The notes: generated by a model from the letters alone, not told the origin. Positions 3,958-26,008 are shown, numbered from the stretch's first letter. The stretch is DNA of 64,000 nt from Victivallales bacterium (GCA_045594005.1 JAZNXT010000138.1:9034-73033); one strand, 5' to 3'. Translations and numbers: made by a program.

Positions 3958-3996
3958 AATAAAAACTCCTTAGCATTTTATGTTTTGCATTTTATG

Positions 3997-4037
3997 GAGG
4001 TGATTTCAAAAGTCATTCAGGACTTTTGAATTACCTC
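3997..4037. promoter_or_regulatory. imperfect palindrome in the 5' region of the 3957 operon
   Basis: gaggtgatttcaaaagtc / loop attcag / gacttttgaattacctc, with 10 perfect bp plus a 5-bp extension. It is preceded by a direct 10-mer repeat gcattttatg at 3973-3982 and 3987-3996. Role unknown. Confidence 0.3.
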
Positions 4038-4292
4038 TATGGAATTAATATATCTGCAATGCTGTTTTTTTGCAAGCACAAATACAGGTTTTTCAAAAAA
4101 AAGTTTCAGCCCGGAAAACCGGACTTTTCAAGGTGTGCGTTGTGTTTTTTGATTACTTTCCATCACCCCCCGGTCAACAGCAAAATAATTTTCCCTTTGA
4201 TATGAAGTCCGGTTCCCCTTTTTTTATGCCGGTCTCCTGCGGCTGATCTTCTTCCGACAGATCAGCCGTCACATATCAACTGCCATTCTTTC

Positions 4293-4799
4293 TTATTTTT
4301 TCTCATTCGGAATAAGGAAAATACTCCCCAAATCTGATTCGCCTTCTTCTAACGCCAAAGGCAGGGGATCATGAAACAAATTTTCTGATGACCCGTTAAG
4401 TGCAATTTGTGAAGAAAGCCATTTTATGTAGGTACTGCTGCCGGTTTGATACCCTTCTTTCTGAATCGTAACCTTTCTTTTCAGAATATCACGGTTATCC
4501 GGATCAGGATATACTCCCGGAGATCCCATATAAATGATATAATGCCATTGTCTGGGGGCATTTACCAGAAAACAACCGTTCTTATCGCTTATTGCACTTT
4601 CGGTGTATGATTTTTCCTCCGTCGATACCGTGTAATAGATTCTTGCACCGCAGACCGGTTCGCCGGTTTCTTCATCAAAGACCTGACCACGGATTGCTTG
4701 CGCAACTTCGCTCGTATGCGGCAGAAAAATACAACCCGGTAACAGTGTCACAAAAACTGAAACAGCAACTATGTAACGCAAAAAAAACTTGAACGGCAA
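4293..4799 (-). CDS. small putative lipoprotein with carboxypeptidase-regulatory-like beta-sandwich motif
   Basis: TTG start with a GAGGAG RBS 8 nt upstream. The N-terminus MPFKFFLRYIVAVSVFVTLLPGC is a signal peptide plus a lipobox-like LPGC. GQVFDEETGEPVCGARIYY resembles the CarboxypepD_reg fold. It lies 45 nt downstream of the 479-aa gene in a visibly AT-richer stretch. Confidence 0.6.
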   Translation of the reverse strand: MPFKFFLRYIVAVSVFVTLLPGCIFLPHTSEVAQAIRGQVFDEETGEPVCGARIYYTVSTEEKSYTESAISDKNGCFLVNAPRQWHYIIYMGSPGVYPDPDNRDILKRKVTIQKEGYQTGSSTYIKWLSSQIALNGSSENLFHDPLPLALEEGESDLGSIFLIPNEKK

Positions 4800-4843
4800 G
4801 GCTGAAACTCCTCATAAAAAACAAGCACTGAACTAATATAACA

Positions 4844-6283
4844 TTACGGAATAAAATTTTCAAGTGTTTCAACAACCGTTTCCAAAAAAGCCCAGTCAAT
4901 AACAAGGAAATTTTTCCCTTGGTATGAAATGTTCGGTTCCCCTTTTACTGTTCTTGTTCCCCATGCTGCATCCCATTGATACTTCATCTTAAAAATCATT
5001 TCATTTTCGTTCCATGTGCCACTGATATAAGCAACACCTCCGTTTTCTTTTGCAATATTGTTTTTTATACGTTGTACCACTTGCGGGAATGCGTTTTTCA
5101 TAAAATCTTTTTTTGATTTTTGCTGCCAGTTTTTTTTAATATCTTTTGTGGCTTGCTTATAAAAATTATTCCGTAGTTCATCATATGTTATTTTGATTTC
5201 AAAATCTTTATTTCTTCCGCTGTAGCACTGCATCAAATAGACCTTTGCCAGTTTGTATCCCTGATTATCAACTGCACTCAGCAGAGCGGCTTGAGATGTT
5301 TTCTTGCCATTCGATTCACTAATACTACCGAATCTACTTCCATGAGCATATAAAACAAATCCCCAGATCTGCCTCCAGTAAGTTTTGAAGGCAGCATACA
5401 TCTCATCAATGGAACGACAGAAAACCTTTTTCATTCCGTATGAACCGACATAAGAAATAACTTGCCCAATGGTTCCTCCGTGATTTATAAATAACCGTTT
5501 TTCCAAACTCCCGCCCTGAAGTAAATCAATACACAGCCAGACATTCGGGACATCCACTGTAATTGTGGTTTGATTCCCGTGTTTTTGAATATTTATATTC
5601 TGCATCCAGACGAATGCTTCATTCTCATCAAGCCGAACGCGTTCTGCAAGTTTTTTGATCAGGTAATCTGCCAGATAAAAGTTGGGAATCGGAATCGTGA
5701 CAGCATAGGTTGCCAAAGCATCCTCCTTGAGACATTTCCAGGAATAATCGTTCAGATCGACTGTTTTTTTGACTTTATTCCAAATACACTTACAATGCGG
5801 ATGAGGACGATATACGCCATCGTCCTGTCGGTAAAATCCCATTTTTTTCATAAAAGTATCGTCCTGCATTTGCTTCTCTGTCACAGTAACACCATCCATC
5901 GAACGGCATTTCTCACAATTTTCCTGCGATGCATCAAATGTAAATGCCTCAACATATTCAACTGTAGAACCGGAAAAAGCAGCATCAGATGTATCAAAAA
6001 ATGCAGTTGCTCCCGGAATCGCATATCCGAAACGGCAAATATTTTTACCTTTTGCCTCTCCTGTTACACCGCGGCAACCGTATTTTGATACAATCTTTTC
6101 CTTGATTTCTGCAGAAAGATGTTTTTTGCAATCCAAGTTCAATTTCTTTGCAATGTCAAGCGTCTCTGCACAAAACGCAACACACGCCGGATTGCCGCAG
6201 TGGATTCCCGGAAACAATCCGGAAAGTCGATCGCGTTTTTCAAATTCCTTCTGCAAAGATTGATCGATTGAAATATTCAGCAT
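4844..6283 (-). CDS. hypothetical protein with Mu F/SPP1 gp7-like Cys/His motif and a caspase-fold-like HG...C dyad
   Basis: The track ORF starts at TTG 6301. An AAAGGAG RBS sits 7 nt before ATG 6283, giving MLNISIDQSL... (479 aa). Motifs are CEKCRSMDG...RPHPHCKC, and GFVLYAHGS with KVYLMQCYSG 39 residues downstream. No signal peptide. Confidence 0.7.
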   Translation of the reverse strand: MLNISIDQSLQKEFEKRDRLSGLFPGIHCGNPACVAFCAETLDIAKKLNLDCKKHLSAEIKEKIVSKYGCRGVTGEAKGKNICRFGYAIPGATAFFDTSDAAFSGSTVEYVEAFTFDASQENCEKCRSMDGVTVTEKQMQDDTFMKKMGFYRQDDGVYRPHPHCKCIWNKVKKTVDLNDYSWKCLKEDALATYAVTIPIPNFYLADYLIKKLAERVRLDENEAFVWMQNINIQKHGNQTTITVDVPNVWLCIDLLQGGSLEKRLFINHGGTIGQVISYVGSYGMKKVFCRSIDEMYAAFKTYWRQIWGFVLYAHGSRFGSISESNGKKTSQAALLSAVDNQGYKLAKVYLMQCYSGRNKDFEIKITYDELRNNFYKQATKDIKKNWQQKSKKDFMKNAFPQVVQRIKNNIAKENGGVAYISGTWNENEMIFKMKYQWDAAWGTRTVKGEPNISYQGKNFLVIDWAFLETVVETLENFIP

Positions 6284-6346
6284 AAGCACAACTCCTTTCA
6301 ACTTATTTTGAATAGAATGTCTGCGTCAAATATTCAGTCTCAAGAA

Positions 6347-6385
6347 CACAAAAAACGGGGTCCGTCCCGAAGGACAGACCCCGTT
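6347..6385 (-). terminator. rho-independent terminator of nifJ
   Basis: On the minus strand: aacggggtctgtccttcgggacggaccccgtt followed by ttttttg. The stem has 9 + 4 bp and lies about 30 nt after the nifJ stop. Confidence 0.85.
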
Positions 6386-16142: not shown

Positions 16143-16991
16143 ATGAAAAAACAAGAAACTTATCTGTTCCATCCGCTGAAGGCAATAACACTGGTTTTTG
16201 AACGGTGGGACCTTTTGAAACAGTTTGTCCGCCGGTCGGTGGAGGAACGTTATCGCGGATCGGTATTCGGTCTGGTGTGGAGTTTTGCCCAGCCGCTGAT
16301 GATGCTGGCGGTCTATACATTTGTCTTTTCCACGATCTTCAAATCCAAAACGACTTTCGGCGGAGTGGCATCGGACATTCCCTTTTCGTTGTTTCTGCTG
16401 TGCGGGATGGCGGTTTTCGGGATGTTTTCTGAAGCGGTGAACGGCTGCTGCAATTCTGTGGCGACGCGTCCGAATTTTGTAAAAAAGGTGGTTTTCCCGC
16501 TGGAGGTCCTGCCGGTCAGTGCGGTGTTTTCCACCTTCATCCTGAATCTGGTCTGGTTTGTACTGCTCATCGGCGGGATGCTGGTGATGGTGCATAAAGT
16601 GTATTGGACGATGATCTTTCTGCCGTTGATTCTGATCCCGTTATTGCTGCTGTCGCTGGGCTGCGGTTTTATTGCGGCATCCATCAGCGTATATATCAAA
16701 GACTGTCAATATTTGATCGGTGTCTGTCTTCAAGTGCTGTTTTTCATGAGTCCGGTATTTTATTCCATGGACCGGATCCTGGAGTCAGATAAGGTGCCGC
16801 AGATCTGCAAAACGATCCTGCAGCTGAATCCGATCTATCCGCTGATCGAAAACACACGCAAGATCTTTCTGATCGGGGAAATGCCCAATTTTGTCTGGTT
16901 GGGGATTCTGACGGTTGTTTCATATATCATCTTCCACTTGGGAGCGGTGTTTTTTATCAAAACGAAGAAAGGATTTGCCGATGTCATCTGA
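16143..16991 (+). CDS. wzm: ABC-2 type polysaccharide/O-antigen export permease
   Basis: Trimmed to ATG 16143. 282 aa with the typical N-terminus WDLLKQFVRRSVEERYRGSVFGLVWSFAQPLMMLAVYTFVF and six hydrophobic spans. It overlaps the ATPase gene by 11 nt. Confidence 0.85.
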   Translation: MKKQETYLFHPLKAITLVFERWDLLKQFVRRSVEERYRGSVFGLVWSFAQPLMMLAVYTFVFSTIFKSKTTFGGVASDIPFSLFLLCGMAVFGMFSEAVNGCCNSVATRPNFVKKVVFPLEVLPVSAVFSTFILNLVWFVLLIGGMLVMVHKVYWTMIFLPLILIPLLLLSLGCGFIAASISVYIKDCQYLIGVCLQVLFFMSPVFYSMDRILESDKVPQICKTILQLNPIYPLIENTRKIFLIGEMPNFVWLGILTVVSYIIFHLGAVFFIKTKKGFADVI

Positions 16992-18306
16992 TGTGAATAC
17001 CAACGAATGTGTGTTTGATGACGATGTGATCATCGGGGTCCGCCATGTAACAAAAGTCTTTGAGATGTATGACAAGCCGCGACACCGTCTTCAGCAGATG
17101 ATGTTCGGCAAGTTCAAGAAATATTACAAGGAATTCAAAGCACTTGACGATGTGAGTTTTGAAGTTCGGCGCGGCGAATGTGTGGGGCTGATCGGGCGGA
17201 ACGGCTCGGGAAAATCCACGATCCTGCAGATCATCACAGGCACGCTTCAGCCGACGGACGGGGAAGTGTATATCAAGCCGGGTCTGCGGATCGCGGCACT
17301 GCTGGAACTGGGGAGCGGATTCAATCCGGAGTTTACCGGACGGGAAAATGTGTATCTCAATGCCAGTATTCTCGGATTCACGAAAGAGGAAACGGAAGCG
17401 ATGTTCCCGGCGATCGAAGAATTTGCGGAGATCGGGGAATTTATTGACCAGCCGGTGAAGACCTATTCTTCGGGGATGATGGTGCGTCTGGCGTTTTCGG
17501 TTCAGATCATGACGAATCCGGACATTCTCATCATTGACGAAGCTTTAGCGGTAGGTGATGCCAGATTTCAGGAAAAATGTCTTGCCGCCATGGGTAAGAT
17601 CTTCAAAGACAAAAACTGCACGGTACTTTTTGTGAGCCACAGTCAGCAGCAGGTGCAAGCCTTGTGCAACCGTTCGATCCTGCTGAAAAACGGGAAAAAG
17701 ATGTACGACGGCGAAGTGGAAACCGCCTTTCACACCTACAACACCAATGGCGAAGTAAATATTTCTCCCACTTTCGTGGATCTTTCTGATGTGGAAAGAT
17801 CTCATGTGGGGCTGCCGATGCGTATAAAATTGCTTTCTTTTGAATTGCTGGATCGGAAAGACAGCATAATTCCTGCCGGAGAAAAGCTGAAATACAAAGT
17901 AAGGATAGAAGGTTTGGATTTCTGTTCTGACTTCATGATTCGCATTCTTATTTTCACGGTCCAAAACAAATTTCCGGTATCCATGGTTTATACAGCTCCT
18001 GATTTCAGCATACAAAAAGGAGAAATCAAGGAATACATTTTTGAAATGGATATTTCGGCATTTGCCCCGGCGTGGTATTCGGCAACGCTTGTCCTTGCAA
18101 AATATATGGTCAATCATAAGCAACAGTTGTTTGACTCTATCCACCACTGTTGGTTTTTTTCTGTTACGGATGCCTCAAAAGATTTTTTCTATGGTCACTC
18201 ATGGGATTTACAATGGTGGGGACCCCAGAAACTCCCTGCATTGCAGCAACTTTTTCCTCAAGAAAGGAATGAAAACGAAGCATGGAAGAAATTACGAGAC
18301 TCATAA
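16981..18306 (+). CDS. wzt: polysaccharide ABC exporter ATP-binding protein with C-terminal extra (Wzt_C-like) domain
   Basis: Trimmed to ATG 16981. Walker A is GRNGSGKST, the signature is YSSGMMVRLAF, and Walker B is ILIIDEALAVGD. About 190 further residues follow the NBD, as in Wzt carbohydrate-binding domains. Confidence 0.9.
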   Translation: MSSDVNTNECVFDDDVIIGVRHVTKVFEMYDKPRHRLQQMMFGKFKKYYKEFKALDDVSFEVRRGECVGLIGRNGSGKSTILQIITGTLQPTDGEVYIKPGLRIAALLELGSGFNPEFTGRENVYLNASILGFTKEETEAMFPAIEEFAEIGEFIDQPVKTYSSGMMVRLAFSVQIMTNPDILIIDEALAVGDARFQEKCLAAMGKIFKDKNCTVLFVSHSQQQVQALCNRSILLKNGKKMYDGEVETAFHTYNTNGEVNISPTFVDLSDVERSHVGLPMRIKLLSFELLDRKDSIIPAGEKLKYKVRIEGLDFCSDFMIRILIFTVQNKFPVSMVYTAPDFSIQKGEIKEYIFEMDISAFAPAWYSATLVLAKYMVNHKQQLFDSIHHCWFFSVTDASKDFFYGHSWDLQWWGPQKLPALQQLFPQERNENEAWKKLRDS

Positions 18307-18504
18307 GTTTTCATTCTTCGATAACGTTGGGCAATCTTCACAGCTGTTGTCGTATTCGCTATGGGAAAGTATGGGCTATACAAACTCACGATTTTGTTTC
18401 ATTTTTCCAGAATGTGAAAATAGCTCCGGATCCGGAGGTAGTGAAGTACGCCATAAAAACGAATTGTGCAAAATAAAAAGATAGCGAAGATGGGAGAGAT
18501 TTTT

Positions 18505-19557
18505 ATGGAACAAATCAAAAAATTTATTACATGCAGCATTCCGATTACCGCTTGCAATTTGCGTTGTCACTATTGCTATATTACCCAAATGAATTTATGG
18601 AAAAACAAAAAAACAGGCTTTTCCTATTCTGCGGAACATATTGGTAAGTCTTTGACAAAAAAGAGATTGGGTGGAATTTGTATGTTTAACCTTTGTGGAG
18701 ATGGAGAAACGTTATTGCCTCAAGAAACAGTTGACATTGTCTATGCACTGCTACAAGAAGGACATTTTGTCACGATCATAACAAATGCAACATTAACAAA
18801 ACGGATCGAACAATTAATTGCATTCCCTGAAGATTTTCGGGAACGCTTGTTACTGAAATGCTCATTTCAATACTTTGAATTAAAACGACTTAATCTATTG
18901 GGACGTTTCTTTGATAATATACGAAAAGCACGAGCTGCGAATATTTCCATCACTTTGGAACTTGTTGCAAATGATGAAATGATCCCGGATATCCCGGAAA
19001 TAAAACGGCTTTCGGTTGAAAATTTAGGAGCTCCGTGCCATGTAGTAATTCCGCGAGTGAATAATGATCCCGCGCTTCCCGTACTTACAACATTGCCAGA
19101 AGACGAATTTTTGAAGACTTGGTCTGTTTTTGATTCGCCGCTTTTTGATTTTAAGCGGGAAATCTGGGGCATTAACCGTCGTAAATTTTTCTGTTATGCT
19201 GGAGCTTGGGGCGGATTGCTTGATATGGGAACAGGAGACTTTTACCAATGCTATCATGCACCGTGCCTTCAAAATCTTTTCAAAGATACGAATTCTCCAC
19301 TCTGCGAAATTCCTATCGGGCATGAATGCAAGATGGCACATTGCTATAATGGACATGCATTTCTTTCATTCGGCTGTATTCCCGATATGGGAAAAACACC
19401 CGGATATGATGAAATGCGAAATAGGATCTGCCCAGATGGGACTCAATGGTTATCCGAACGCATGAAAAAGTTTTGTGCGACAAAACTCTACGATTCCAAT
19501 AAAAGATGGGGAAAATTACATCAACGTTTCTTCCCTCCCAAGATAAAAAACGATTAA
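18505..19557 (+). CDS. radical SAM protein of unknown function in glycan locus
   Basis: Start chosen at ATG 18505 (GGGAGAG RBS). The CNLRCHYC (CxxxCxxC) motif sits near the N-terminus. The C-terminus is Cys-rich (FFCYAG...YQCYHAPC...PLCEIP...HECKMAHC...FGC). It lies in the lower-GC part of the locus. Confidence 0.85.
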   Translation: MEQIKKFITCSIPITACNLRCHYCYITQMNLWKNKKTGFSYSAEHIGKSLTKKRLGGICMFNLCGDGETLLPQETVDIVYALLQEGHFVTIITNATLTKRIEQLIAFPEDFRERLLLKCSFQYFELKRLNLLGRFFDNIRKARAANISITLELVANDEMIPDIPEIKRLSVENLGAPCHVVIPRVNNDPALPVLTTLPEDEFLKTWSVFDSPLFDFKREIWGINRRKFFCYAGAWGGLLDMGTGDFYQCYHAPCLQNLFKDTNSPLCEIPIGHECKMAHCYNGHAFLSFGCIPDMGKTPGYDEMRNRICPDGTQWLSERMKKFCATKLYDSNKRWGKLHQRFFPPKIKND

Positions 19558-19576
19558 ATTCACTGGAGGATTTACA

Positions 19577-20713
19577 ATGTTTGGCGTAAAAACTTTCCTA
19601 AAAAAACATTTCCCGCTTCGCGAAACAAATTTCAAAGAAGCGATTGATGATCTCAACTGTTCTGTAGAATCAATTGCAAGCAGTTATGGTATCCTAACCG
19701 AGGAAATTAAAAAACAAAAACATCTTGTTGCGTTATCAGAATCGCAGAATTCGGCAAAACACCGTTTTATTTCCATCGGAGTTCATTCCTACCGGAATCT
19801 GGGAGATATTGCGATTACCTATGCACAAAAGTGTTTTATTCACACGCATTTCCCAGACAGTCTCTTTTATCAAATTTCCATTTCTGAATATTTCAATCTG
19901 AAAGATCAGATTATAAATATAATTCGCCCGAATGATACGATTTTACTCTTTGGCGGAGGAAATTTTGGCGATGTTTATCCTGTTGCAGAAGAATTGCGAC
20001 GTTCAGTGATTTTGAATTTCCCCAAAAACAAAATCGTTATTTTTCCGCAAACATATCATTTTTCATCTTCTGAATCGGGAAAAACAGAAGAACAGAAAAC
20101 TGCAGCGATTTACAATCGCCATCGGGATTTGCATATTTTTGCGCGGGAGCAAACATCTTTTCTGTTAATGCAAAAGAACTTTCAAAAAATTCCGATTCAT
20201 TTGGTCCCGGATATGGTATTGACAGAAAGTTGGCATACAAACATTGTGCGATCGGGCGCAATATGTTGTTTGCGATCAGATAAGGAATCAAAACTCACAC
20301 CTCTTGAGAAGGCAAAAATCCGTGGGACTTTGTTAAAAATTTTACAGGTAAAAGAGCTGGACATGCTCATTCCCGGATGTAATCCGATCTCCATTGCTGA
20401 TCATCCGGTTCTTGTGAGCAATCACATGTTTGAATTCAATAAAACGAAACTGGTAGTAACAGATCGGCTTCATGGAATGATTTTTGCTGCGGTGACAAAA
20501 ACTCCATGTATTGTATTTGAAAATTATGATCATAAAATCCGTTCATTCTATAATACATGGCTAAAGGATTCCTTTCCGAACATCCGCTTGTTGGAAAACA
20601 TGGATCTTTTGGAACAGAATGTAAGAGAATTTCTATCTGCACCTCCTGAATCTACAGATATATCCCTGCTGCAAGGTTCCTATCGGGAACTGTTGAATAC
20701 TTTGACCCCGTAA
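19577..20713 (+). CDS. polysaccharide pyruvyl transferase family protein (CsaB/WcaK-like)
   Basis: 378 aa with a GGAGGA RBS. It has NLGDIAITYAQ near the N-terminus and the C-terminal VVTDRLHGMIFAAVTKTPCIVF motif typical of the PS_pyruv_trans family. Confidence 0.8.
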   Translation: MFGVKTFLKKHFPLRETNFKEAIDDLNCSVESIASSYGILTEEIKKQKHLVALSESQNSAKHRFISIGVHSYRNLGDIAITYAQKCFIHTHFPDSLFYQISISEYFNLKDQIINIIRPNDTILLFGGGNFGDVYPVAEELRRSVILNFPKNKIVIFPQTYHFSSSESGKTEEQKTAAIYNRHRDLHIFAREQTSFLLMQKNFQKIPIHLVPDMVLTESWHTNIVRSGAICCLRSDKESKLTPLEKAKIRGTLLKILQVKELDMLIPGCNPISIADHPVLVSNHMFEFNKTKLVVTDRLHGMIFAAVTKTPCIVFENYDHKIRSFYNTWLKDSFPNIRLLENMDLLEQNVREFLSAPPESTDISLLQGSYRELLNTLTP

Positions 20714-20729
20714 AACGGATTTCGCTGTT

Positions 20730-21767
20730 ATGGTTTCAATTATTGTTCCTGTTTACAATGTGAAAAAATATCTGCGGGAATGCCTTGACAGTGTTCTGGC
20801 TCAAACATTCTCCGATTTTGAAGTCATTTGTGTCAATGACGGATCCACAGACGGCAGTCCTGCCATTCTGGAAGAATATGCCGCGAAGGATCTGCGGATA
20901 AAAATAGTCCATCAGGAAAACTCCGGGCTTTCAGATGCGCGAAATACAGGTATGTCTTTTGCACAGGGAAAATATCTTTATTTTCTGGACAGTGATGACT
21001 GGATCGAACCGGACACATTGGAAGTCTGCCACAATACGGCAGAGGAAAATCAGCTGGATGAATTGATTTTCAACCGGATTGAATTTTACGAAAATGAAGA
21101 CATGGAAAATATGTTCCGGGAAAAAGAAAAGAGTCAATTCAGAACGACTGCCGTAATGGAAGGGAAAGCTCTTTTTGCGTCTGCCATGCAGAATGGCACA
21201 TTCCGCTCTCCGGTTCCGTTCCGTTTTTTACGCAGGGAATTTCTTCTTGAAAACGGTTTGCGCTTTTACAGCAAATTGATCCATGAGGATGATTTATTCT
21301 CAACACAATGTGCCTTTTTATCAAAGAGATCCATGTATATTGATAAATATTTTTACCATCAACGGCGCAGAGAAAATTCCATCATGACAAAACAGGTGTC
21401 TTTTCAGCGTTTTATTTCCTGTGCGATCATTCATCGTGAATTTTCTGCATTGCTGTTGGCTTGTATCGGAACCGAAGCAGAAAAAGCACTTGCGCTGTAT
21501 ATGGAGCGCAACTTATTTCGTGCGACTGCTTTCTATAAAAAGTTGGAAAAAGCAGAATTCTACGCAGAATATAAAAAATATCCGGAGTTGCAATCTTTCT
21601 ATGGGTTCCTGCCGCTTTCTGATGTGCAGAACAGAAAAAGTTACCGGGAGGGAGCCAAAGATAAAGCAGAAGAAATTACCTCCGGTCTGACCTGGAGATT
21701 GGGGCATATCCTTCTGTGGCTTCCGCTGAAGATCGTGCAGCTGTTGAAAGGGCGGAAAAATGGCTGA
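20730..21767 (+). CDS. family 2 glycosyltransferase (paralogue 1)
   Basis: The N-terminus is VSIIVPVYNVKKYLRECLDSVLAQTFSDFEVICVNDGSTDGS, with LDSDDW as the DxD motif. The C-terminal tail is LWLPLKIVQLLKGRKNG. Confidence 0.9.
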   Translation: MVSIIVPVYNVKKYLRECLDSVLAQTFSDFEVICVNDGSTDGSPAILEEYAAKDLRIKIVHQENSGLSDARNTGMSFAQGKYLYFLDSDDWIEPDTLEVCHNTAEENQLDELIFNRIEFYENEDMENMFREKEKSQFRTTAVMEGKALFASAMQNGTFRSPVPFRFLRREFLLENGLRFYSKLIHEDDLFSTQCAFLSKRSMYIDKYFYHQRRRENSIMTKQVSFQRFISCAIIHREFSALLLACIGTEAEKALALYMERNLFRATAFYKKLEKAEFYAEYKKYPELQSFYGFLPLSDVQNRKSYREGAKDKAEEITSGLTWRLGHILLWLPLKIVQLLKGRKNG

Positions 21768-22836
21768 AATATCTGTTGTCATTCCTGTTTACAATGTGGA
21801 GCAATACCTGCGGGAGTGTCTGGATTCATTATTGGCACAAACTTTTACAGATTGGGAAGCCATCTGCGTGAATGACGGTTCACCGGATGACAGTCTTTCC
21901 ATTTTGGAAAAATATGCAGCAGCAGATCAACGGTTTAAAATTATCTGCCGGGAAAACGGTGGTCTTTCCGCTGCCAGAAATACGGGTGTTCATGCAACAT
22001 CAGGAAAATATCTTTACTTTCTGGATAGTGATGATTGGATAAAACCGGAATTGCTGCAGCTCTGCTATGAAAAGGCGGAAAAATATCAGTTGGACATTTT
22101 ATATTTCGGCTTTATTCCTCTTTTTGAACACGGTCTTTCGTCTGATGAAAGTTATCCTTTTGATGAAAGTATTTGTAATCGTGTTTTCACTGGAACGGAC
22201 TTCTTTAAGACTGCAGAAACAACTCAAAGTTGGTATCCGGCGGCGTGGCTGCGTTTTTATAGAAGAAGTTTTTATACGGAACATAATTTGCAATATTGTG
22301 AGGGAATTCTTTATGAAGATCTACACCTCCATATTGGATCGGATCTCCTGGCTAAACGGGTGATGCCGTTGAAAGAAAAATTGTATTTTTACCGGATCCG
22401 TAAAAATTCGATTATGTCCCGACAAAAACAAATCCATGATCTTTACTCCAGATGGCTCATCCATAAAAGGATGAATATGGTTTTTCAAAAGTATTTCTCG
22501 GAAAATGATCCTGCCTTCATTCGTGCGATGTTGCTCAGAATACGCAAAAATACTGCGATGGCAACAACTATCTTAAAAAATCTGGATCCGAAAATTGTAT
22601 ATAAATACATTGCGGAACACCCTGAAATGAACGAGTTTTTCGTTTTTCTCTCAAATGAATTGGATATACAGAACGAAAATCAGAAAATGCAGGATATTCT
22701 TTTACAAAAACATGACTGCTTACAGGAAAAACTGGATTTTATACTGAATCATTCCATCTCCTACAAGGTCGGCAAGGCAGTCACATGGCTGCCGCAGAAG
22801 ATCATGCAACTGCTGAAAGGATGCAAAAATGGCTGA
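21760..22836 (+). CDS. family 2 glycosyltransferase (paralogue 2)
   Basis: The N-terminus is MAEISVVIPVYNVEQYLRECLDS...CVNDGSPDDS, with LDSDDW. The start overlaps the upstream stop by 8 nt (ATGGCTGA). The tail is SISYKVGKAVTWLPQKIMQLLKGCKNG. Confidence 0.9.
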   Translation: MAEISVVIPVYNVEQYLRECLDSLLAQTFTDWEAICVNDGSPDDSLSILEKYAAADQRFKIICRENGGLSAARNTGVHATSGKYLYFLDSDDWIKPELLQLCYEKAEKYQLDILYFGFIPLFEHGLSSDESYPFDESICNRVFTGTDFFKTAETTQSWYPAAWLRFYRRSFYTEHNLQYCEGILYEDLHLHIGSDLLAKRVMPLKEKLYFYRIRKNSIMSRQKQIHDLYSRWLIHKRMNMVFQKYFSENDPAFIRAMLLRIRKNTAMATTILKNLDPKIVYKYIAEHPEMNEFFVFLSNELDIQNENQKMQDILLQKHDCLQEKLDFILNHSISYKVGKAVTWLPQKIMQLLKGCKNG

Positions 22837-23944
22837 AATTTCAATCATCATGCCCGTTTACAATGTGGAAAAATATCTGACGGAATGTCTGGATTCCCTG
22901 CTGGCACAGACTTTTACAGACTGGGAGGCGATCTGTGTTAATGATGGATCAAAGGACAGCAGTCTTTCCATTCTTCAGCAATATGCGGAAAAAGACTGCC
23001 GGATCAGGATATTGGATCAGGACAACAGCGGAGCTGCCGCATCCCGCAACAATGGCATGAAACTTGCCACGGGCAGATACTGGATATTTCTCGACAGCGA
23101 TGACCGTTTCCTGCCGAAAATGCTGCAAAGTCTTTATGAAAACGCAACCGCGACCGACGCAGAAGTCACGATGTGCGCCTATGATGTTTTCGATTCAAAC
23201 TCCGGCAATACCTGTTATCGTTTTTTCTATCCGGAATATATGTCTGTATTAAATACATTCAGCTTGAAAGAGAAACACACGATACCATTGCAGGATTTTC
23301 AGCCGGCTCCGTGGGTCTATCTCTATCAAGCCGATTATATCCGGAAACTTGATCTGCGATTCCAGGATCTGCCGCGCTCCAATGATTTGTTTTTTACCCG
23401 CGCCGCATTGCTTCATGCCGACAGACTCGCCATAGTCAATAAAATTCTCGTAAATTACCGGGTGGGAATGACAACTAATCTGCAAAGCGGGAATTCAAAA
23501 TCGCCGTTGGCTTTTCTGCAGGCAATGTATGCGCTGGCAGATTATTTAAAAAAGAATGAACTCTTTACCATTTATAAGACACGTTTTGCCATTGACCTTC
23601 TGCGCTTGTGTAAATACAATCTTTCCACACAAAAAAATGAATCCGGCTTTACCGTATTGTTTGAGGAAATCCGGCAAAGTGTATTGCCCTGCTATTGGAA
23701 AAATATAAATATCACGGAAATTCCTGAAAAAACAACAGCATTTTATCAACGCATTTCCCAGGCGCAAACACCGATAGATTATTTTATCCTTTGGCAGAAA
23801 GACGAACAAATTATGCGAAACAATCTCTATGCTGAAATAGAAAAACAATCTGCTCTCTATGAAGCGATCAAAAATTCCGGATCCTATAAAATCGGCAGAT
23901 TTATTCTCACGCCTTTGGACTGGATCAGGAGATTATTCCGATGA
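22829..23944 (+). CDS. family 2 glycosyltransferase (paralogue 3)
   Basis: The N-terminus is MAEISIIMPVYNVEKYLTECLDS...CVNDGSKDSS, with LDSDDR. It shows the same 8-nt ATGGCTGA overlap. The tail is SGSYKIGRFILTPLDWIRRLFR. Confidence 0.9.
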   Translation: MAEISIIMPVYNVEKYLTECLDSLLAQTFTDWEAICVNDGSKDSSLSILQQYAEKDCRIRILDQDNSGAAASRNNGMKLATGRYWIFLDSDDRFLPKMLQSLYENATATDAEVTMCAYDVFDSNSGNTCYRFFYPEYMSVLNTFSLKEKHTIPLQDFQPAPWVYLYQADYIRKLDLRFQDLPRSNDLFFTRAALLHADRLAIVNKILVNYRVGMTTNLQSGNSKSPLAFLQAMYALADYLKKNELFTIYKTRFAIDLLRLCKYNLSTQKNESGFTVLFEEIRQSVLPCYWKNINITEIPEKTTAFYQRISQAQTPIDYFILWQKDEQIMRNNLYAEIEKQSALYEAIKNSGSYKIGRFILTPLDWIRRLFR

Positions 23945-25014
23945 AAGTTTCTATTGTCATTCCCGTTTATAATGTAGAGCTTTATCTGCGTCAGTGTCTG
24001 GAAAGCGTACTGGCACAGACTTTTTCTGACTTTGAAGCAATTTGTGTTAATGACGGCTCCACAGATGACAGCCTTGCGATTCTGAAAGAATTTGCCGCAA
24101 AAGATCCCCGGTTCAGGATCATTGAACAGCCCAACGGCGGACTTTCCGCCGCAAGAAATACAGGTGCTGAGAAAGCACAGGGGAAATATCTTTATTTCCT
24201 CGACAGTGATGATTGGATCGAACCGGATCTGCTGCAACGTTGTTATGAAACAGCAGAACTGTATGATACAGATGAGGTGATTTTCGGTTTCGTACCAGAA
24301 TATGAAGAAGGAGCTGAAAAACAAAATCTTGCACAAAAAGCTCTGTTTCCTCCCGGAGAAATAAAAAGCGGCAAAGAATATTTTACCGCAATGGAATTAG
24401 CAGGTTATTACCATCAGTGTGCCTGGATCCGTTTTATGAAACGGAATTTTTACAAACAAAACAGTTTTTCGTATATGCCTGGAGTTCTGTATGAAGATGC
24501 TATATTGCATATAACTGCCGATTTGTTGGCTGAACGCGTTGTGTATTTGGATATAGAGTTATATCATTACAGAATCAGAAATAAATCAATTATGCGCTCC
24601 TCATTCACATTCCGCAATATCTATTCTTACTGGTGCTGTGAAAGAAATGTTAATCTTCTACTGGAAAAATATTCTGAAATCCATGATCTTTGTCAGGCTC
24701 TTTTTTTATATCGTGCAGAAATTTTGCGTAGTACGGCAAAACGAATAGCACAAGTTCCAAAAAATGAACTTGAAGAAGGAATAAGAAAATATCCGGAAAT
24801 AAAATCTTTTCTGTTTTCGGTGAACACGATCAAAGCGGATCTGCATTATTTTGATATGATGATCCGGGATTACGGCTGGAATGAAACAGAAATCTTGCGA
24901 GAGAAAATGGATTTTATACTGCATCGTTCCATTTCTTATAAGGTCGGGAAAGTTATCATGTGGTTGCCGCAGAAGATCATGCAACTTCTGAAAGGGCTTT
25001 TCAAACATGGCTGA
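23941..25014 (+). CDS. family 2 glycosyltransferase (paralogue 4)
   Basis: The N-terminus is MKVSIVIPVYNVELYLRQCLES...CVNDGSTDDS, with an ATGA overlap to the upstream gene. By eye it is closest to paralogue 2. The tail is SISYKVGKVIMWLPQKIMQLLKGLFKHG. Confidence 0.9.
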   Translation: MKVSIVIPVYNVELYLRQCLESVLAQTFSDFEAICVNDGSTDDSLAILKEFAAKDPRFRIIEQPNGGLSAARNTGAEKAQGKYLYFLDSDDWIEPDLLQRCYETAELYDTDEVIFGFVPEYEEGAEKQNLAQKALFPPGEIKSGKEYFTAMELAGYYHQCAWIRFMKRNFYKQNSFSYMPGVLYEDAILHITADLLAERVVYLDIELYHYRIRNKSIMRSSFTFRNIYSYWCCERNVNLLLEKYSEIHDLCQALFLYRAEILRSTAKRIAQVPKNELEEGIRKYPEIKSFLFSVNTIKADLHYFDMMIRDYGWNETEILREKMDFILHRSISYKVGKVIMWLPQKIMQLLKGLFKHG

Positions 25015-26008
25015 AATTTCTGTCATCATCCCCGTTTACAATGTGGAGAAATATCTCGCGGAATGTCTGGAAAGCGTCCGGATCCAATCCTTTAAAGACT
25101 GGGAGGCGATTTGCGTCAACGATGGTGCCACAGACAACAGCCCTGCGATCCTGAAAGAGTTTGCAGCGAAGGATCCCCGGTTCAGGATCATTGAACAGGA
25201 AAACGGCGGACTTTCCGCCGCAAGAAATGCCGGAGTGCGCGCGGTCACCGGGAAATACATCTATTTTCTGGACAGCGATGATCTGATCACTCCGGATGCA
25301 TTGCAATGGATGTATGAAACTGCCGAACTGCACAAGACAGATCTTCTTCATTTCGCCGGGGAGCCGTTTTATGAGCCGGGCGTGGAAAAAGATCCTTTTG
25401 AAGAACAGGATTTTTTCAAAGGGCAGTATGGGGAATGTGTTTCCGGGGATGTGCTTCTTCTTCAGATGCTCCGGAAAAATGACTGGAATCCCGGTGTGGT
25501 TTACCGGTTCTACCGGAAAGATTTTTATACGGAAAATCATTTGTCTTTCCACGAAGGGGTCCTGCATGAAGATGAAGCATTTTCCCTGATCGCAGATCTT
25601 TCTGCAAAACGGACGATGCGGCAGAATAAGATCTGCTACCGCCGCCGCGTCCGGGCAGGATCCATTATGACGTTTTCCTCTGCGGCACGGCATCTTACAG
25701 GGTGTCTGACAGCATACGATGACATTCAGAAGTTTTTGAATACAAAACACTTTCCTGCGGAAGTGACAGATTTTATCCGGCGGCGTCTGGCGTGTCTGCT
25801 GCTCACGGCAAAAAAATATCTGCCGGAAGATCCGGATACAACACTTCTTCAGCGGATCGCGGATGCGGAAAAATTCATTGCAGAAGCGGAAGCGGCAGAT
25901 GAACGCGCCAACCGTAAATTTTTGGATCGTCTCTTTGCACCGCTGCGTTGTCTGCGTGAAAATGGATTGCGTTACACTCTCAAAAGGATTTTTGGTAAAA
26001 AATCTTGA
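25007..26008 (+). CDS. family 2 glycosyltransferase (paralogue 5)
   Basis: The N-terminus is MAEISVIIPVYNVEKYLAECLES...CVNDGATDNS, with the 8-nt ATGGCTGA overlap. The tail is CLRENGLRYTLKRIFGKKS. Confidence 0.9.
   Translation: MAEISVIIPVYNVEKYLAECLESVRIQSFKDWEAICVNDGATDNSPAILKEFAAKDPRFRIIEQENGGLSAARNAGVRAVTGKYIYFLDSDDLITPDALQWMYETAELHKTDLLHFAGEPFYEPGVEKDPFEEQDFFKGQYGECVSGDVLLLQMLRKNDWNPGVVYRFYRKDFYTENHLSFHEGVLHEDEAFSLIADLSAKRTMRQNKICYRRRVRAGSIMTFSSAARHLTGCLTAYDDIQKFLNTKHFPAEVTDFIRRRLACLLLTAKKYLPEDPDTTLLQRIADAEKFIAEAEAADERANRKFLDRLFAPLRCLRENGLRYTLKRIFGKKS

Follow-up and report, generated by a model that had tools for sequence, protein, structure and literature searches.

A 64,000-nucleotide (nt) stretch of a Victivallales bacterium genome (GCA_045594005.1 JAZNXT010000138.1:9034-73033, hereafter the window) holds, at positions 4,293 to 6,283, an AT-rich islet of two co-oriented minus-strand genes, one coding for a 479-amino-acid (aa) protein and the other, just downstream, for a 168-aa lipoprotein. 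With a probability of roughly two in three (0.66), we consider this islet to be a polymorphic toxin-immunity pair belonging to a family of the Lentisphaerota, in which the 479-aa protein is a modular effector made up of a MuF-like carrier domain, a helical adaptor and a C-terminal His/Cys domain (denoted HG...C), and the lipoprotein is the candidate immunity protein. Systems of this kind are already well known, and what is new here is a toxin-domain family without a curated model, its cognate lipoprotein family, and a MuF-like carrier outside phages. A preliminary description of the islet, made from the sequence alone, had proposed a phage-derived toxin or protease module with the lipoprotein as partner, target or immunity factor, and the toxin part of that proposal is now independently supported by the placement of the HG...C domain at the tips of RHS proteins and by sister fusions of the carrier to Tlde1 and CHAP-like modules.

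In the mechanism that we propose, the effector, being synthesised without a signal peptide, would be cytoplasmic in the producing cell, and its Cys-rich MuF-like carrier of ~175 aa would probably serve as a metal-binding trafficking handle to an export or injection route. The effector would then be delivered into the periplasm of neighbouring cells, where the His/Cys dyad would cleave a periplasmic or cell-envelope substrate, while the 168-aa lipoprotein, anchored in the periplasm, would neutralise it and thereby protect the producer and its kin. Tlde1/Tldi1 and Tae/Tai, periplasm-acting injected effectors with their partners, likewise combine an effector lacking a signal peptide with a periplasmic lipoprotein; the islet resembles them in both respects, and a Tlde1 domain is present on a sister protein.

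A conserved His/Cys domain with a predicted caspase-like fold

The motifs quoted in the preliminary description are present exactly in the 479-aa protein, with GFVLYAHGS (residues 308-316) and KVYLMQCYSG (residues 347-356) in its second half, His314 and Cys353 being 39 residues apart, and with CEKCRSMDG (residues 123-131) and RPHPHCKC (residues 159-166) in its first half. That these motifs are not due to chance follows from their conservation, because in 87 copies of the domain at ~30% identity His314 was retained in 99%, Gly315 in 98% and Cys353 in 98%, and in the N-terminal motif the Cys and His residues vary little or not at all among 25 carriers (alignment A3). Further conserved positions in the domain are VPN (246-247), D253, GGxxG (269-273), WG (307-308), G319, Q352 and S355. 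Past the Cys, the copies of the domain continue for 32-130 aa and close with a tail motif peculiar to the family, which reads WDAAWG...SYQGKNFLVIDW in the window protein, and of which positions W247, Y260, N264 and D269 (alignment A5) are invariant or near-invariant. As this tail motif is shared by the family and follows a variable insertion, residues 358-479 are part of the same domain.

A structural model of the domain, built from a 38-sequence alignment, reached a predicted local distance difference test score (pLDDT) of 87.8 and a predicted template-modelling score (pTM) of 0.82. Following the adaptor, its elements are ordered beta-alpha-beta-alpha-beta(...AHG)-alpha-beta(...MQC), and the His-Gly and the Cys terminate adjacent hydrophobic strands (model residues 112-121 and 153-158). 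A Foldseek comparison of this model with the PDB returned first the SAVED-CHAT protease 8tl0 (probability 0.97-0.98), next caspase-2 (probability up to 0.99, template-modelling score (TM-score) 0.46-0.50 on the target) and then caspases-7, -3 and -11, with the top matches as a whole having probabilities of 0.8-0.99, E values of 0.013-0.4 and TM-scores that were 0.27-0.30 when scaled to the query and reached 0.50 when scaled to the target. The full-length AlphaFold model was poor (pLDDT 68), and fold searches with it against PDB and BFVD gave only noise (EF-2, ribosomal protein S24e). At the sequence level, none of 41 domain members matched Peptidase_C14, CHAT or other Pfam clan-CD models at E<=1, and profile searches against PDB sequences gave no clan-CD link, the only matches being homeodomain-like and located on the adaptor helices. 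As the fold neighbours come without a sequence-level clan-CD link, caspase/CHAT-like is used here for a mechanism and not for membership of a family. In these terms, the best-supported assignment of the modelled domain is a caspase/CHAT-like cysteine peptidase, with putative peptidase activity. The caspase fold put forward in the preliminary description is suggested by the model and its Foldseek neighbours, CHAT proteases and caspases (E>=0.013), and not by the sequence, which has no C14 or CHAT match. A reading of the His...Cys pair as that of an L,D-transpeptidase (YkuD) or a sortase was rejected, as spacing, motif and predicted alpha/beta topology all disagree.

Zhang et al. (2012, PMC3482391) describe polymorphic toxins whose C-terminal tips are domains termed 'Tox-Caspase (H, C)'. 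The HG...C domain resembles these, and CHAT proteases and caspases as well, in having a His and then a Cys, each after a hydrophobic beta-strand, with a Gly after the His; with Tox-Caspase it also has in common the (predicted) alpha/beta core and the terminal position on RHS and other carriers. It differs from Tox-Caspase in matching neither Peptidase_C14 nor CHAT nor any other Pfam model by sequence, in having its own signature (VPN, D, GGxxG, WG, HG, QCxS, W..W...GYxGxN..G.D), a helical adaptor and a variable insertion, and in having been seen only in the Lentisphaerota, a phylum which is not listed for Tox-Caspase in PMC3482391.

The helix-helix-strand adaptor that precedes the core of the domain has the family consensus vYxxxxGDTxxxLAxxVGLDxxExxKWA and is LysM- or helix-turn-helix-like, although an identification as LysM was rejected, with just 1/41 members touching LysM (E=0.0085). 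The adaptor (~45 aa) is present three times, at a spacing of ~95 aa, in P0016, P0030, P0036, P0052, P0067, P0085 and P0132. The tripled form suggests a repeated binding module, possibly with a ligand in the cell wall.

Exchangeable cargos and a MuF-like carrier outside phages

The preliminary description had taken the 479-aa protein for an orphan, which it is not: 170 relatives emerged when 1.84 billion cluster representatives were searched exhaustively with a profile, while a word-indexed database search with the domain profile had given 8 proteins only. Full-length homologs make up 11 clusters with 39-100% identity, one of them named Lentisphaeria, and the motifs are kept in all. Two parts of the 479-aa protein are also found separately: residues 1-175 form the N-terminus of proteins that continue differently, and residues ~205-365 stand at the very C-terminus of other proteins, among them ones of 2287, 1911, 868, 856 and 805 aa. 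The long HG...C proteins are RHS-repeat proteins, and the two longest start with Sec-type signal peptides; in P0062 the RHS core motif DPLGLW is found at residue 620 and the HG...C domain begins at ~638. A position right after the RHS core motif is canonical for an RHS-encapsulated toxin. The carriers of the HG...C domain comprise RHS, helical-repeat and MuF-like proteins, it is also found stand-alone (L012, L015), and it is always the C-terminal-most module, with no toxin domain after it. Its RHS-borne copies are arranged as in RHS toxins, placed after the 'DPxGL' motif (P0062, L011) and, at L011, with a small gene plus an orphan piece of toxin downstream, whereas the window copy sits on a MuF-like carrier of ~175 aa and has no signal peptide.

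Conversely, tail clustering showed the carrier fused to at least 10 types of C-terminal module, at least nine of them unrelated to HG...C. The sister cargos include a Tlde1_dom, which scored 31.2 bits and thus above the Pfam cutoff of 30.1, CHAP-like modules (E=4e-4) and DUF4347-like H...C modules (E=6e-5). Tlde1 is a type VI L,D-transpeptidase-type toxin acting on peptidoglycan. DUF4347 is a domain of PA0256, a putative antibacterial effector delivered by Hcp (PMC8262886), and swappable cargo on a conserved carrier together with swappable carriers for one cargo is what defines polymorphic toxins (PMC3482391). All genome matches of the HG...C domain (6/6) were in the Lentisphaerota, to which the family is confined as far as sampled.

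Other fusions and copies were seen in the same searches. In P0018, P0019, P0083 and P0096 the carrier bears a cargo with the motif LPKSPEEAIKKGF..APD...YHRNKGQxGNxKYYHPxTGQEVVFDKxGxIV and no Pfam match, which by its sequence may be a further undescribed toxin domain. Genes with the MuF-like motif and other C-termini at L027 (1044-2876) and L020 (998-2694) are followed by small multi-transmembrane proteins in place of lipoproteins, neighbours which fit cargo-specific immunity genes and suggest that some cargos are membrane-acting. The Victivallales genome OY787460 contains two near-identical loci ~7 Mb apart (L013 3844-9695 and L014 3865-7730), each with a helical-repeat, non-RHS carrier ending in HG...C, a gene for a 202-aa lipoprotein 17 nt 3' of it and a repeated N-terminal part of the carrier; the L014 carrier is split in two open reading frames (ORFs).

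The distribution of cargos and carriers also bears on an intracellular role in anti-phage defence or abortive infection, where a MuF-like sensor or mimic would activate a caspase/CHAT-like protease in the style of SAVED-CHAT. The best structural neighbour is a SAVED-CHAT defence protease, the protein has no signal peptide, its N-terminal domain resembles a phage structural protein, and the gene lies in a low-GC variable islet, all of which would fit such a role. We nevertheless regard it as very improbable, given that PADLOC had no match for either protein or their relatives, that the obligate neighbour is an exported lipoprotein, that the same payload is found within RHS proteins bearing Sec signal peptides, and that the peptidoglycan-directed Tlde1 and CHAP-like cargos of the carrier would be senseless in the cytoplasm.

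The carrier consists of two different halves. The N-terminus of the 479-aa protein is hydrophilic and without a signal peptide (by inspection only), and a TTG at 6301 was rejected as an alternative start, as it sits within the ribosome-binding site (RBS) and homologs begin with MLNxxI at the ATG. The N-terminal half is a Cys-rich module distinct from, and lying outside, the MuF-matched part; its five conserved Cys (29, 34, 38, 70 and 83) are invariant or near-invariant columns of the carrier alignment and point to a probable metal site. The C-terminal motif of the carrier has the MuF pattern with a MuF-like spacing, and short-loop relatives reproduce the 17-residue VF-to-NC[KR]C spacing of Mu gpF; the equivalent motif in the authentic MuF proteins Mu gpF and SPP1 gp7 is D-x-RTR-x-x-H...G...PP...NCRC. 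While a Pfam search with the 479-aa protein gave no match to Phage_Mu_F (PF04233) at E<=1, this model was matched by 7/25 members of the carrier family (best E 2e-4), the best of them scoring 22.5 bits, which is below the cutoff of 29.6, and covering only positions 68-110 of the 112 in the profile. In the PHROG collection, phrog_115 'minor head protein' was matched by 12/25 members (best 2.3e-7), phrog_4728 'head morphogenesis' by 9/25 (best 3.1e-8), and four more MuF-type families were matched as well. Going by these profile matches, the kinship of the carrier with MuF is a remote homology of the motif-bearing sub-domain and does not amount to membership in the Pfam sense. The MuF identity given in the preliminary description is retained in this weaker form, through the PHROG matches of relatives, and not as a match above the Pfam cutoff.

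According to Jamet et al. (2017, PMC5576092), MuF polymorphic toxins occur in phages and prophages only, and Bxa of Bacteroides stercoris is a further MuF toxin (PMC11699363). The islet family is like these in its MuF/gp7 motif in the N-terminal domain, in its interchangeable C-terminal modules and in the small adjacent putative immunity gene. It is unlike them in that known MuF toxins are found beside portal and terminase genes, whereas the islet family is found without phage context; in that the carrier family matches just the last ~40 of the 112 Pfam positions, below the cutoff, and has a distinct five-Cys module as its first half; and in that the islet cargos and partners point to the periplasm, whereas MuF toxins are typically nucleases or ADP-ribosyltransferases.

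The same comparison bears on a recently degraded prophage, of which a classical MuF toxin-immunity pair would be left after decay, and this explanation we find improbable. The MuF-type motif and the PHROG head-protein matches speak for it, as do the low GC and the strain-level presence or absence, and MuF toxins have small immunity ORFs behind them (PMC5576092). Against it, homologs from four other species are at unrelated sites without phage genes, and no portal or terminase genes were found beside relatives at the loci examined. Three different profiles run against 2.9 million viral contigs gave no relatives, a tblastn search of 50,697 phage genomes with the N-terminal domain of the window protein gave no match, and the most MuF-like relative gave marginal matches in phage genomes (E 0.05-0.9), several of them on 'head morphogenesis' genes. 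In addition, the MuF profile is matched over its last ~40 positions only, no integrase, tRNA, mobility genes or flanking repeats were seen around the islet other than short chance repeats, and the polymorphism seen in strain L028 (described below) is a deletion within the islet and not an empty attachment site. The short chance repeats at the flanks and the internal nature of this deletion also led us to reject insertion of a mobile element. The phage origin with loss of context, as first proposed, can thus be kept as a remote, lineage-wide ancestry, but not in the sense of a prophage, as neither prophages nor viral contigs yielded a relative.

The GC content of the cassettes is below that of their flanks in 8/9 loci, and their chromosomal sites differ among species (nifJ/Fe-ADH, FTHFS, hisF/Tat and ackA); low GC at unrelated sites fits horizontal exchange.

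That a carrier resembling MuF bears 10 or more kinds of cargo at ordinary chromosomal sites, in a poorly studied phylum of the PVC group, raises the question of how the effectors leave the cell. No type VI genes were found near the loci examined, the scan in the window covering 10 further genes, all of them polysaccharide or ABC genes, and the 479-aa protein has no PAAR, VgrG, Hcp, MIX or DUF4123 domain in Pfam. We tentatively suggest that the N-terminal domain could be a loading signal for an as yet unrecognised delivery apparatus of the Lentisphaerota, either a domesticated particle resembling a phage head or gene transfer agent or a contact-dependent injector. If true, this would be a phage-independent MuF-type system that injects a periplasm-acting repertoire of caspase-fold-like, Tlde1, CHAP-like, DUF4347-like and as yet uncharacterised modules.

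The lipoprotein family and its linkage to the toxin gene

The 168-aa lipoprotein has the TTG start (at 4799), the GAGGAG RBS (at 4808-4813) and the lipobox (LLPGC) that had been described for it, and although it lies just downstream of the toxin gene as stated, the spacer measures 44 and not 45 nt. Its signal peptide with lipobox reads MPFKFFLRYIVAVSVFVTLLPGC; the lipobox Cys is invariant in the alignment of the family (A8), in which homologs have the canonical lipoboxes LLSGC, LLASC and IMTSC. The family signature QWHYxxYxGSPGxxPxP contains nine invariant positions (W85, Y87, Y90, G92, S93, P94, G95, P98 and P100). Residues 36-83 match the CarboxypepD_reg-like models PF13620 (E=2.3e-6) and PF13715 (E=2e-5), with the PF13620 score of 28.3 bits being under the gathering cutoff of 32.3, which makes a kinship with CarboxypepD_reg likely at the sequence level. 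The lipoprotein is like CarboxypepD_reg proteins in this match and in having homologs so annotated (transthyretin-like beta-sandwich), and unlike them in its score below the cutoff, its own invariant motif, its lipobox, and the occurrence of the family only beside HG...C genes.

The two genes were strongly linked in both directions, i.e. when starting from the toxin and when starting from the lipoprotein, so that the co-occurrence test named in the preliminary description came out in its favour. The lipoprotein family has 7 clusters, and every member with enough flanking sequence has an HG...C neighbour, while its homologs adjoin HG...C genes in six independent contexts in the Lentisphaerota. 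These are the tandem arrangement in the window species; L005, with a 59%-identical toxin and a 51%-identical lipoprotein at a different chromosomal site; L011, where the lipoprotein gene is located 3 nt 3' of an RHS tip and is followed by an orphan toxin fragment; L012, in the complete genome of Lentisphaerota strain zth2, with a stand-alone 231-aa toxin and a convergent lipoprotein gene (38% identity, E=2e-18); and the convergent arrangements at L015/L030 and at L031. Some lipoprotein gene is adjacent in all resolved contexts (9/9), with the other three contexts carrying a different lipoprotein. One of these other kinds is a 202-aa family from a Victivallales genome; the other consists of Cys-rich proteins of ~72-86 aa, which are present in L001 and L023 and additionally in L005. 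What the contexts share is an exported lipoprotein encoded next to a toxin that has no signal peptide.

The linkage is complemented by a deletion in natural strains. L028 belongs to the same species, with flanks that are 99% identical, and what remains there is the final ~54 nt of the toxin gene plus an intact lipoprotein gene; the same adjacency of nifJ and lipoprotein gene is found in L032 and L033, which are assemblies of the same species. The three represent loss of the toxin with retention of the candidate immunity gene, a familiar pattern for toxin-immunity systems, and the keeping of the lipoprotein after deletion of the toxin argues against it being a mere helper of the toxin. Loss and retention at strain level suggest active competition among kin in natural populations, and this in a phylum, comprising Victivallales and relatives, whose members are regularly met in the gut and the environment but are little understood.

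Linkage by itself fits immunity, substrate or partner equally well, so we also considered a protease with a substrate or partner, i.e. a processing or self-releasing peptidase for which the lipoprotein would be substrate, anchor or export helper. Clan-CD-like domains often release or process large secreted proteins (PMC3482391), and the convergent orientation in three contexts would be unusual for immunity genes. This alternative is nonetheless unlikely, as the HG...C domain is always C-terminal-most and has no toxin domain behind it to be released, and as the RHS core motif immediately upstream already provides release. In addition, the HG...C proteins have no signal peptides while the lipoprotein is exported, which places the two in separate compartments of the producer, strains with a deleted peptidase retain an intact lipoprotein gene, and the carrier is shared with genuine toxin domains such as Tlde1.

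An antibacterial toxin with its immunity protein is also to be preferred to an effector directed at a eukaryotic host or at protists, with the lipoprotein having an unrelated envelope function. Some relatives come from gut metagenomes, and eukaryotic targets are possible for RHS and caspase-like toxins (PMC3482391). We find this the least probable of the explanations considered, since the two-way linkage of the lipoprotein and its retention after toxin loss point to self-protection, which implies an antibacterial aim because only antibacterial toxins need immunity, and since the sister cargos are peptidoglycan enzymes.

Several results count against a polymorphic toxin-immunity pair. For the toxin domain, sequence searches of Pfam, NCBIfam, PADLOC and PDB gave nothing significant, Foldseek gave nothing at E<=1e-3 with modest TM-scores, and an hhalign comparison of the HG...C domain with the DUF4347-like modules gave a non-significant 5.5% probability, in an alignment that pairs His with His and Cys with Cys. 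The 479-aa protein itself matched PHROG only at E=0.028 (phrog_1657 'head morphogenesis', on the Cys motif). With regard to the partner, 3/6 pairings with the lipoprotein family (L012, L015/L030 and L031) are convergent instead of co-transcribed, which is atypical for toxin and immunity genes. Three kinds of lipoprotein accompany one domain, with L005 having both a member of the 168-aa family and Cys-rich ones, so that the 168-aa protein is one candidate among several for the neutralising partner. Finally, no delivery apparatus was identified in the scanned part of the window, which has metabolic and polysaccharide genes.

The small Cys-rich lipoproteins are encoded at L005 3216-3452 and 3459-3719 (in tandem), L001 9443-9661 and L023 9473-9700, directly 3' of full-length genes with carrier and HG...C domain in three other species, the window species being without such a gene. 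They have a run of Cys at or after the lipobox (MSCCRCCC, ACIHTCCCC, CTCCCLFLTSC) and an acidic helical tail, and may be an alternative or second immunity factor. At L011, positions 1478-1798 right after the lipoprotein gene code for the orphan C-terminal HG...C fragment (starting ...ITEAHPMQCYSVYKG), and the layout of RHS tip, lipoprotein and orphan fragment resembles the orphan toxin cassettes of RHS and contact-dependent inhibition (CDI) loci. Both the toxin-domain and the 168-aa lipoprotein families are ready for family curation.

Boundaries, composition and neighbours of the islet

The coordinates of the islet features are collected in Table 1. The description of the islet as AT-rich and consisting of two genes was borne out: over 3958-6346 the GC content is 0.394, compared with 0.497 for the whole window, which is within the lowest 2% of windows of equal size, and the GC content at third codon positions of the two islet genes (0.36 and 0.39) is below the gene mean of 0.54 (standard deviation 0.08). 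The nifJ terminator that had been named as its upper boundary is a real hairpin, located at 6354-6385.

Table 1. Positions in the window of the islet genes, their domains and motifs, and the elements bordering them.
Feature	Position	Strand	Basis or remark
479-aa modular effector: carrier domain, helical adaptor, His/Cys domain	4844..6283	-	ORF, ATG start
RBS AAAGGAG, 8 nt 5' of the ATG at 6283	6292..6298	-	read from sequence
N-terminal carrier domain, aa 1-185	5729..6283	-	local hidden Markov model matches in 57 proteins, tail clustering, alignment A3
Cys-rich first carrier half, aa 24-86, FPGxxCGNxxCxxxC...C...CRFGF	6026..6214	-	alignment A3
MuF/gp7-type motif, aa 116-168, D..x..CxxC...G...PHPxCKC	5780..5938	-	
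Helix-helix-strand adaptor, aa 203-243	5555..5677	-	conservation, repeats, model helices
Core alpha/beta His/Cys domain, aa 244-357	5213..5554	-	
His314 codon, putative catalytic His, end of strand IWGFVLYAHG	5342..5344	-	
Cys353 codon, putative nucleophile, end of strand KVYLMQC	5225..5227	-	
Lineage-specific insertion, mostly helical, aa 358-435, between Cys strand and tail	4979..5212	-	tail comparison, model
Conserved domain tail, aa 436-479, family motif W..xW...GYxGxNxxGxD	4847..4978	-	
Spacer between the two genes, 44 nt, with the GAGGAG RBS	4800..4843	-	
168-aa lipoprotein, candidate immunity protein, TTG start	4293..4799	-	ORF
Signal peptide and lipobox LLPGC, aa 1-23 (Cys23 codon 4731-4733)	4731..4799	-	
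Lipoprotein-family signature QWHYIIYMGSPGVYPDPD, aa 84-101	4497..4550	-	alignment A8
Segment absent from L028, L032 and L033 (toxin gene and its RBS)	4898..6317		blastn of L028 against the window
nifJ intrinsic terminator, 14-pair hairpin	6354..6385	-	upper islet boundary
Terminator-like hairpin 3' of the lipoprotein gene, before Fe-ADH	4108..4125	-	consensus match only

In the window the islet has nifJ, queC, Fe-ADH and glycosidase genes as its neighbours. The lipoprotein gene is separated from the one for Fe-ADH by an AT-rich non-coding spacer of 335 nt (3958-4292, minus strand), which contains an inverted repeat at ~4239-4270 and promoter-like hexamers. The sole other low-GC block of the window is a polysaccharide-synthesis cluster (18.5-26 kb; 16915-26008 on the plus strand), in which six genes have a GC content of 0.38-0.43, and which contains an ABC transporter ATPase, a radical SAM protein, a polysaccharide pyruvyl transferase and five consecutive family-2 glycosyltransferases; it is probably a horizontally exchanged surface-glycan locus. 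In one strain of the same species, genes for Cas9, Cas1 and Cas2 are located directly past queC (L007 1-4606), and two uncharacterised genes occupy the corresponding position in L008, L009 and the window (~11-13.7 kb), so that a strain-variable CRISPR locus is found a few kb from the islet.

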